In this document: positions 38,260 through 39,447 of the stretch, one piece after another
How positions within the stretch are numbered: position 1 is the first letter of the stretch
Layout: the number at the start of each line of letters is the position of its first letter
Source: Escherichia coli
GTDB taxonomy: Bacteria; Pseudomonadota; Gammaproteobacteria; Enterobacterales; Enterobacteriaceae
Assembly (NCBI RefSeq): GCF_001677475.2
Contig: NZ_CP015229.1
Strand: one strand, 5' to 3'
Length of the DNA: 64,000 bases
Translations under genes and position numbers: made by a program
Notes under the pieces: model-generated
The model's input: only the letters and a program-made list of their open reading frames with translations
What the model was told of the DNA's origin: nothing
Database searches by the model: none

Positions 38260-39371
38260 GTCATGCTCTCCGTATCCTTACAGGGTTAATGATTCGTATT
38301 AAGTCGTAGCCATCCGCATGGCTCCGGGCGATTCTGTCAGTGCACCAGGATGTACACTTCGGATGCGTTCTTGATGTAGTAAACAATCCGCTCATTCTGG
38401 TGTTAATGGTGTAACTACGAAAGCACCCGTAAAAAGCAGGAGGAATGCCAGTTATTGGCGAATTTACAATGCTGCCATCGGGGTGAGTTTCATGAAGATT
38501 ATTATTTTTTTACGCCTTGAATCATCGCGGTAAATAATAATTTCTTCCTGTGTATTATAAAGTACGCAGTTACAATTATTCGTGAGCCTTGTTGTTAATT
38601 CGATGTTAGCCCTTGGTCAGAGGGAAAATTAACGCGTAAGATTTTCAAATTCATCGACCGAGAAATAGATGGATTATATGCTCGACCCTAATTACAGGGT
38701 TCATCTGAAAACAGTGGCGTCTCATCTTATTACTTCTCTTTCTGTATTCAATACTAGTGGGTTTGTAATAATATAGTAAAAAATCGTGAGTAAAAAGCTT
38801 TGATTAATTATCAGCTTATTGATTTTTATGTGTTAGTGTTTTTGATGATTGATTTTCACGAGAATCTCTTACTTTTGGTTAAGATTTCTAATTTATTATA
38901 TGTGGCTTTTTTAATTCGCATCCTGCTTCGTTTTATCGTGATGTAGAATTGTATATAGCATTAGCCATAAAATGATATCACTGGAAATATAATAAGGAGG
39001 ATTATAATTTTTGGGGTTAATTACGCACTATCAAAAATCGCTCATTCCAGGCTTAAATACACGTTTTCTCCTGTTTAGGTTGGGGCAAAAAATTCGATGA
39101 GGAGATGAGGTATGATTTTATTCACAACCTTATCACTATCTATTAATAAGCAAAAAACAACGTTCTTTTGTGAAACGACAAAATGAAAATTCAACCCTTC
39201 GGGGCACGCTGCAGCGAGTTTGTCGCCACCAACATTCGTGCAAGCTTCATCTGCCGGGCGAAAAGTCAGCTAAATACCTTAAAATAATCGCTTTTATCTC
39301 CTGGTTTGATCTCCTCGTTTTTACATTCCAACATCATTTTATAAACATTCCGCTTGTATTTTTCTTTACTG

Positions 39372-39390
39372 TAATGATAATTGCTATCAC
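39372..39390. promoter_or_regulatory. Candidate Fur box upstream of efeU
   Basis: TAATGATAATTGCTATCAC resembles the GATAATGATAATCATTATC Fur consensus, about 60 bp before the efeU start. Confidence 0.55.
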
Positions 39391-39447
39391 TGCGATTTAC
39401 TTTTCTTTGCATAGATTGACTCAGAAAAACGTTTAAGGGTGGGTGGC

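Follow-up and report, generated by a model that had tools for sequence, protein, structure and literature searches.

The efeUOB (ycdNOB) promoter of Escherichia coli is reportedly under the control of Fur and CpxR. Acquired DNA is said to undergo xenogeneic silencing by H-NS, and spurious intragenic and antisense promoters have reportedly been observed in AT-rich or foreign DNA. These systems, together with the O islands (S loops) of O157:H7 strains, are the described counterparts of the locus analyzed here, the DNA between an accessory gene of the ECs_1262 family and efeU in a 64,000-nt stretch of E. coli contig NZ_CP015229.1. This whole stretch is referred to as the window, and all coordinates are window positions unless another sequence is named. 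Repression of the efeUOB operon by Fur has been described (PMC3577903), and efeU bears a Fur box and is responsive to serum and iron (PMC4145685). It is also listed as a CpxR target (RegulonDB as quoted in PMC7657598; PMC4145685). For strain EDL933 non-canonical transcription start sites (TSSs) have been reported (PMC10469882).

The window shows the E. coli gene order putA-putP-islet-efeUOB. The putA gene is located at 30875-34903 on the minus strand and putP at 35260-36768 on the plus strand, followed by the 447-aa open reading frame (ORF) of the accessory gene (Table 1). The ATG of the accessory gene (38259-38257, minus strand) and the ATG of efeU (39448) flank the intergenic DNA, which therefore covers 1,188 bp at 38260-39447 and is called the gap in the following. 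The original prediction, made from the sequence alone, had described this gap as AT-rich regulatory DNA of the kind bound by H-NS, with divergent promoters for both neighbouring genes, a candidate Fur box and perhaps a hidden small RNA or small protein.

Composition and origin of the gap

We consider it probable (about 0.8) that the gap consists of non-coding DNA from two different sources, which meet at about 39195, and that it specifies neither an RNA nor a protein of its own. The native control region of efeUOB, with a sigma-70 promoter, would occupy the right-hand ~250 bp and in particular the last ~130 bp. The left-hand ~935 bp would represent the upstream region of the sole gene of a 2.3-kb accessory islet. 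On this account the gap is an ordinary composite of accessory upstream DNA and the known Fur-controlled efeU promoter.

The distribution of the DNA among 5,426 complete E. coli genomes reveals the two parts. Matches to the gap were obtained in 5,417 of these genomes, of which 643 match most of it and the remainder only its last 104-166 bp. The near-universal part starts at 39283, 39318 or 39345 and ends at 39447. The islet itself is present in 643 genomes, always as a single copy and always between putP and efeU. The islet DNA makes up ~935 of the 1,188 bp of the gap, and 88% of E. coli genomes lack it. These ~935 bp are accessory DNA that moves with the neighbouring gene and not a regulatory region of efeU, a point which the original prediction had overlooked. 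The junctions of the islet were placed by comparison with K-12-type and compact putP-efeU spacers, and homology to the K-12-type spacer resumes from 39196 on. At the sensitivity of blastn no further copy of the islet-specific DNA was detected elsewhere in the genomes, and no relatives were found in phages or true plasmids. Plasmid matches were encountered but turned out to be pieces of chromosome filed as plasmids.

The promoter of efeU lies in the near-universal part. Cappable-seq of EDL933 revealed one efeU TSS at 1410675 in all conditions (PMC10469882, supplement 6). The efeU ATG of EDL933 is located at 1410734 and the alignment in this region is free of indels; therefore, the TSS corresponds to window position 39389, 59 nt before the ATG. 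The candidate Fur box at the efeU-proximal end was borne out as a sequence. The site TGTAATGATAATTGCTATC matches the 19-bp Fur consensus GATAATGATAATCATTATC at 14 of 19 positions and is among the four best sites in the 64 kb. Since no site anywhere in the window matches this consensus with three or fewer mismatches, the match has to be regarded as moderate. At position 39382 the window carries a T; a C is found here in the K-12-type sequence and in the other six islet alleles, which raises the match to 15 of 19. The site overlies the -10 hexamer of the mapped promoter and ends at -1, and for this reason iron-loaded Fur would be expected to block RNA polymerase. The CpxR consensus is GTAAA-N5-GTAAA, and a CpxR-like site may be present just downstream of the efeU start (Table 1).

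The locus resembles the known efeUOB promoter in gene order, in the last ~105-166 bp before efeU, which it has in common with nearly all E. coli, and in the positions of the Fur-box-like site over the -10 hexamer and of the CpxR-like repeat just behind the start. It differs in the T at 39382 and in the DNA upstream of about -195, which belongs to the islet. In islet-bearing strains including O157:H7 the control region of efeU is to be sought in the last ~130-250 bp and not in the whole 1.2-kb gap. With respect to the proposed divergent promoters, the one of efeU is indeed present, while the promoter of the accessory gene was not located; in EDL933 no gene-associated TSS was observed for this gene within 250 bp upstream under eight conditions (PMC10469882).

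The gap is AT-rich and non-coding, as had been predicted. Its G+C content is 0.367 overall and 0.32 for 38500-39200, with a minimum of 0.27 in 200-bp windows, compared to ~0.5 for the flanking genes and 0.487 for the whole window. The 500-bp window with the lowest G+C content of the entire 64 kb lies inside the gap (0.306 at 38701). Tracts of at least five A/T are 2.7-fold denser in the gap than window-wide (11.8 versus 4.4 per kb). No features are annotated in the gap in any inspected genome. According to the prediction no ORF of 60 aa or more with a plausible start exists here; one ORF of 88 aa with a GTG start does lie at 39170-39436 on the plus strand. Such a length is expected by chance: in 1,000 dinucleotide shuffles the longest ORF measured 72 ± 19 aa and reached at least 88 aa in 17% of cases. 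Three of seven alleles also carry a frameshift in this 88-aa ORF. Thus, the scarcity of ORFs is what random AT-rich sequence yields.

In order to compare divergence along the gap, seven alleles were aligned (window, Ecol_316, Sakai, TW11681, M121, O145 and LH50-c). This comparison was restricted to E. coli because the scan of other species gave only one contig, mislabelled as belonging to a Collinsella metagenome-assembled genome (MAG). Synonymous divergence (dS) of the same genome pairs served as yardstick and amounts to ~0.10 between allele groups for the accessory gene and to 0.05-0.10 for efeU and efeO. Divergence is 0-5% at 38260-38400, 1-7% plus one 11-bp indel at 38401-38555, and 0-4% at 39345-39448. 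Since they diverge less than a dS of ~0.10, the 300 bp beside the accessory gene and a 60-bp block further upstream appear to be under constraint. The conserved ~300 bp probably serve the accessory gene as a leader and/or as control DNA close to the promoter, and the 60-bp block is a candidate site for protein binding or a candidate element of the promoter of this gene. Taken together, they most likely contain the leader of the gene, its promoter and the binding sites of regulators. Unconstrained filler would make up the two AT-rich stretches between the constrained parts. For these stretches (38556-38684 and 38745-38950) the alleles are mosaic, and divergence exceeds that of synonymous sites in the adjacent genes, for the same genome pairs, by a factor of 1.3-2.6.

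Table 1: Coordinates of the features discussed in the text, given as window positions.
Feature	Position	Strand	Remarks
Accessory islet	~36880-39195		2.3 kb; 447-aa gene plus ~935 bp of AT-rich upstream DNA; boundaries approximate
Accessory gene	36916-38259	-	447 aa, "hypothetical protein"; Sakai ECs_1262, EDL933_RS07105; intact in 7 of 7 alleles
Promoter-like TTGCTG-17-GATATT with TSS 38258	38223-38258	+	EDL933 TSS 1409551, 4 of 8 conditions; points into the gap
Proximal upstream region, conserved	38260-38555	-	0-7% divergence; one 11-bp indel at ~38411-38421
Shine-Dalgarno sequence GGAGAG of accessory gene	38266-38271	-	6 nt before the ATG; invariant in 7 alleles
Hypervariable AT-rich stretch 1	38556-38684		13-26% divergence between allele groups plus indels; no detectable feature
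Conserved 60-bp block with CCCTAATTACAGGG	38685-38744		0-5% divergence, flanks 13-26%; overlapping ORFs not conserved
Hypervariable AT-rich stretch 2	38745-38950		13-20% divergence between allele groups; mosaic alleles
Right end of islet-specific DNA	38951-39195		4-9% divergence; about the neutral rate or slightly below
Stretch common with K-12-type putP-efeU spacer	39196-39291		~70% identity; missing from compact 219-bp spacers
efeU core promoter	39354-39389	+	-35 TTGTAT 39354-39359, 16-nt spacer, -10 GATAAT 39376-39381, start A 39389
Fur-box-like site TGTAATGATAATTGCTATC	39370-39388	+	covers the -10 hexamer; ends one base before the start site
CpxR-like tandem pentamers GCAAA-N5-GTAAA	39396-39410	-	+8 to +22 of the efeU transcript; putative, identified by eye

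Possible silencing and transcription of the islet DNA

Binding of H-NS to the islet DNA is plausible in view of its composition, the density of A/T tracts, its origin as accessory DNA and a neighbouring gene that is apparently silent. On the grounds of composition and foreign origin H-NS would likely target this DNA and keep the accessory gene silent in the laboratory. In common with H-NS-silenced acquired DNA, the gap has a G+C content of 27-37% compared to 49% for the window and dense A/T tracts, belongs to an accessory element of 12% of the genomes, and adjoins a gene without detectable sense start under eight laboratory conditions. In contrast to such DNA, the accessory gene itself has an ordinary G+C content of ~50% and the high-affinity H-NS motif shows no clear enrichment; here it is composition that points to H-NS. 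A search of the literature found no chromatin immunoprecipitation data on H-NS for this locus.

Inside the accessory gene eight start positions in five clusters were mapped on the plus strand, that is antisense to the gene, in EDL933 (PMC10469882, supplement 7). The clusters at EDL933 positions 1408336/8, 1408719/30, 1409154, 1409452/4 and 1409551 correspond to window positions 37043/5, 37426/37, 37861, 38159/61 and 38258. The start at 37861 (EDL933 1409154) was observed in all eight conditions. The start at 38258 lies within the first codon of the accessory gene, seven nt past the promoter-like sequence TTGCTG-17-GATATT. Between EDL933 positions 1409553 and 1410674 no TSS of the gene-associated or antisense class is recorded, and the orphan class in the available part of the data extends only to ~0.5 Mb. 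This pattern of antisense starts fits spurious promoters in silenced foreign DNA, and the EDL933 starts would then be examples of the spurious promoters common in such DNA. As in other AT-rich or foreign DNA, the starts are antisense within a gene, one of them at its start codon and directed towards the gap; unlike there, they are found within the gene and not in the AT-rich gap.

Several observations weigh against this interpretation of the gap as a composite without a product of its own. Orphan TSSs in the accessible data are covered up to ~0.5 Mb, so additional starts within the gap could exist. The transcript data all come from O157 strains, in which the islet-specific DNA is ~89.6% identical to that of the window. 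Promoter-like sites in the gap are no commoner than in shuffled sequences (6 versus 4.2 ± 2.0). The H-NS motif tCGATAAATT is represented by two matches of at least 8/10, one of 9/10 (38648, minus strand) and one of 8/10, where 1.15 are expected by length share. The designation of the conserved 300 bp as leader or promoter derives solely from constraint, and a promoter of the accessory gene was not found. Finally, seven mosaic alleles provide low power, and local conservation could partly mirror the history of recombination.

Alternative explanations for the accessory upstream DNA

The ~935 bp might for the most part be what is left of one or several decayed genes from a time when the islet was larger, functionless save for a short promoter. 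Such decay would suit the indels and the high rate of divergence of the two AT-rich stretches as well as the lack of detectable features. It would also suit strain eco-241 (NZ_CP053662.1; locus L016, 748-1445), in which nearly the whole region was deleted and both flanking genes were retained. In this genome an IS1 element replaced ~38275-39145; 14 bp separate it from the start of the accessory gene, and only the last ~50 bp of islet DNA are left before the efeU promoter. However, no residual protein similarity was detected in any frame: the six-frame translation of the gap gave no Pfam match at E ≤ 1 and no homolog at E ≤ 0.01 among 5.8 billion proteins (2,912 candidates). Similarity to phages or true plasmids is absent too, and the proximal 300 bp and the 60-bp block are clearly constrained. 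Because no homolog was found, the claim of a remnant lacks positive support, and we regard it as unlikely.

Only the plus-strand start at 38258 hints at a non-coding transcript. A small RNA acting in trans, or a long transcript without coding function, for example one reading from this position through the conserved 300 bp, would agree with the detection of the equivalent start in half of the EDL933 conditions and with a conservation of 38260-38555 above that of synonymous sites. Furthermore, two 90-nt stretches of the plus strand fold better than shuffles in the window allele (z of -2.7 and -2.9). In the Sakai allele, however, this folding signal is gone (z of -0.1 and -0.9). Among the 71-78 pairs predicted in consensus folds of the conserved 300 bp, calculated from the seven alleles for both strands, none shows compensatory change. 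The O145 and LH50c alleles have lost a hairpin at 39104-39134, and their substitutions break rather than compensate pairing. Rfam gave no match in the gap at E ≤ 1, and a strict scan detected no Rho-independent terminator; a lenient scan provided two marginal candidates with 5-bp stems, one mismatch each and weak T tails. The locus, by genes or coordinates, is not mentioned in the accessible portion of the supplementary text of an Hfq-crosslinking study. Moreover, the antisense starts are scattered along the whole accessory gene, as spurious promoters would be. A hidden small RNA, which the original prediction had held possible, is therefore quite improbable.

Little probability is likewise given to a dedicated device for cis-regulation of an effector-like gene, which would be made up of the constrained parts (38260-38555 and 38685-38744) and surrounded by filler whose evolution outpaces that of synonymous sites. 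A long leader RNA which gates translation might serve as such a device, or else a plus-strand RNA from 38258 with either the accessory gene or efeU as its target. In a specific version of the leader model the conserved 300 bp would be a long structured 5' leader in which a CCUCC stretch (~38424-38447) pairs with the Shine-Dalgarno region and thereby gates translation. Pairing of CUCC...UUUUUACGGGU with ACCCUGUAAGGA...GGAG is predicted in the single-sequence fold as well as in the consensus fold of the seven alleles; neither arm varies, and the loop they enclose contains the 11-bp indel. The duplex has a calculated energy of -19.2 kcal/mol, but when the upstream DNA is dinucleotide-shuffled, 40-73% of the resulting sequences pair with the Shine-Dalgarno region equally well or better. 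In addition, the z-score of the whole leader is only -1.3, covariation is absent and no start site upstream of the CCUCC stretch is known. We therefore hold this structured leader to be very improbable.

A small protein encoded by a 13-codon, 44-codon or 48-codon ORF of the gap is hardly to be expected. All seven alleles retain the 13-codon and the 48-codon ORF in intact form, and the latter was once annotated in RefSeq. The other ORFs of at least 20 codons lose start, frame or stop in some alleles, no frame of the gap has homologs, and ribosome profiling of Sakai in laboratory media reported no novel small gene at 1.321-1.326 Mb (PMC5597208). The suggestion of a hidden small protein thus did not hold up. 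The 13-codon ORF MPVIGEFTMLPSG (38445-38486, plus strand) stands behind AGGAGG, but the spacing between this Shine-Dalgarno sequence and its ATG is 1 nt. It shows two replacements, one of them via two base changes, versus one synonymous change, and its intactness is found in a region that is conserved anyway. The 44-codon ORF ends 1 nt before the accessory ATG and was considered as a coupled leader peptide; it is stopped prematurely in five of seven alleles. A 24-codon ORF with a good Shine-Dalgarno sequence at 39112 has its ATG in the window allele only and ATA in the other six. The 48-codon ORF (39266-39412, minus strand) lies on the efeU promoter and shows amino-acid-changing substitutions only. 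It is the former EDL933_RS07110 (1410552-1410698), which is gone from the current RefSeq annotation; strain F070 (L004, 2328-2630) still has a longer version of 100 aa in its annotation.

Two further candidates were rejected. Esr41, an O157 small RNA tied to iron genes, was considered as a resident of the gap but is actually located in O-island 43 between z1181 and z1182. Terminal repeats of a mobile element (insertion sequence or miniature inverted-repeat transposable element) were represented by one 18-nt inverted repeat of 83% identity spanning the islet (36785-36802 and 39143-39160), which is no better than other chance pairs; the islet-specific DNA is present in exactly one copy per genome.

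On the preferred reading of a composite without separate product, the gap matters little: those functional elements that could be pinned down (efeU promoter, Fur site and start site) were known before, and no product could be demonstrated for the remainder. The unstudied ECs_1262-family gene promises more than the DNA upstream of it.

The accessory gene and the putP-efeU spacer

The accessory protein looks effector-like and fast-evolving. Between E. coli alleles the gene exhibits a ratio of nonsynonymous to synonymous divergence (dN/dS) of 0.3-0.65. Residues ~89-143 show weak PipB2_N/PipB similarity. Homologs of the N-domain are 41-43% identical, and one of them adjoins ygjK; the upstream DNA of such paralogs (loci L011 and L012) has no similarity to the gap. 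According to structure prediction the C-terminus consists of three ~62-aa repeats, the only part predicted with confidence (predicted local distance difference test above 90). Over 20 large proteins, among them several that carry SET domains, share these repeats, as do two PHROG families of unknown function. A fold search of the PDB gave no match at E ≤ 0.001, the best being PUR repeats and the PipB2 N-domain. PADLOC gave no match either, and the protein has no solved relative. The literature on ECs1262/Z1516 contained nothing beyond one incidental table of single-nucleotide polymorphisms.

Close relatives of the accessory protein are all from E. coli or from unnamed sequences. In representative genomes of other species the sole match to the gene was an E. 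coli-like contig in a MAG. This 2.8-kb contig, JAIJJM010000433.1 (L005), is filed under a Collinsella MAG and encodes an accessory protein that is 98% identical; it is almost certainly misbinned E. coli DNA.

Like the O islands or S loops of O157:H7, the islet is an insertion relative to K-12, 2.3 kb in length, between two core genes and is present in Sakai and EDL933. Unlike these, it is not confined to O157 but also occurs in unrelated strains such as O7:H15 sequence type 70, the enterotoxigenic E. coli strain TW11681, O145 and O169:H41, and no integrase, tRNA gene or repeats were found at its ends. No tRNA or transfer-messenger RNA genes are present in the gap, and no tRNA gene lies near the islet.

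The spacer between putP and efeU is particularly prone to structural variation. It occurs in three forms: the K-12-type of 542 bp with a sequence similar to repetitive extragenic palindromic (REP) elements, a compact form of 219 bp in which the putP terminator is directly followed by the efeU promoter, and the ~2.3-kb islet of the window. In the K-12-type spacer (L002, 2340-2510) the extra ~170 bp contain a REP-like palindrome with ATAATCG at both borders. Compact spacers (L013, 2915-3000; L014, 2888-2975) exhibit a clean putP terminator hairpin.

Regions of comparably low G+C content (0.31-0.34) were also observed elsewhere in the window at ~20100-20650, 50300-55600 and 62800-63900 and may represent more accessory DNA. 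In the control region between putA and putP a 69-codon ORF is located at 34892-35101 on the plus strand, which is annotated as "hypothetical protein" in RefSeq (e.g., L001, 1192-1401).

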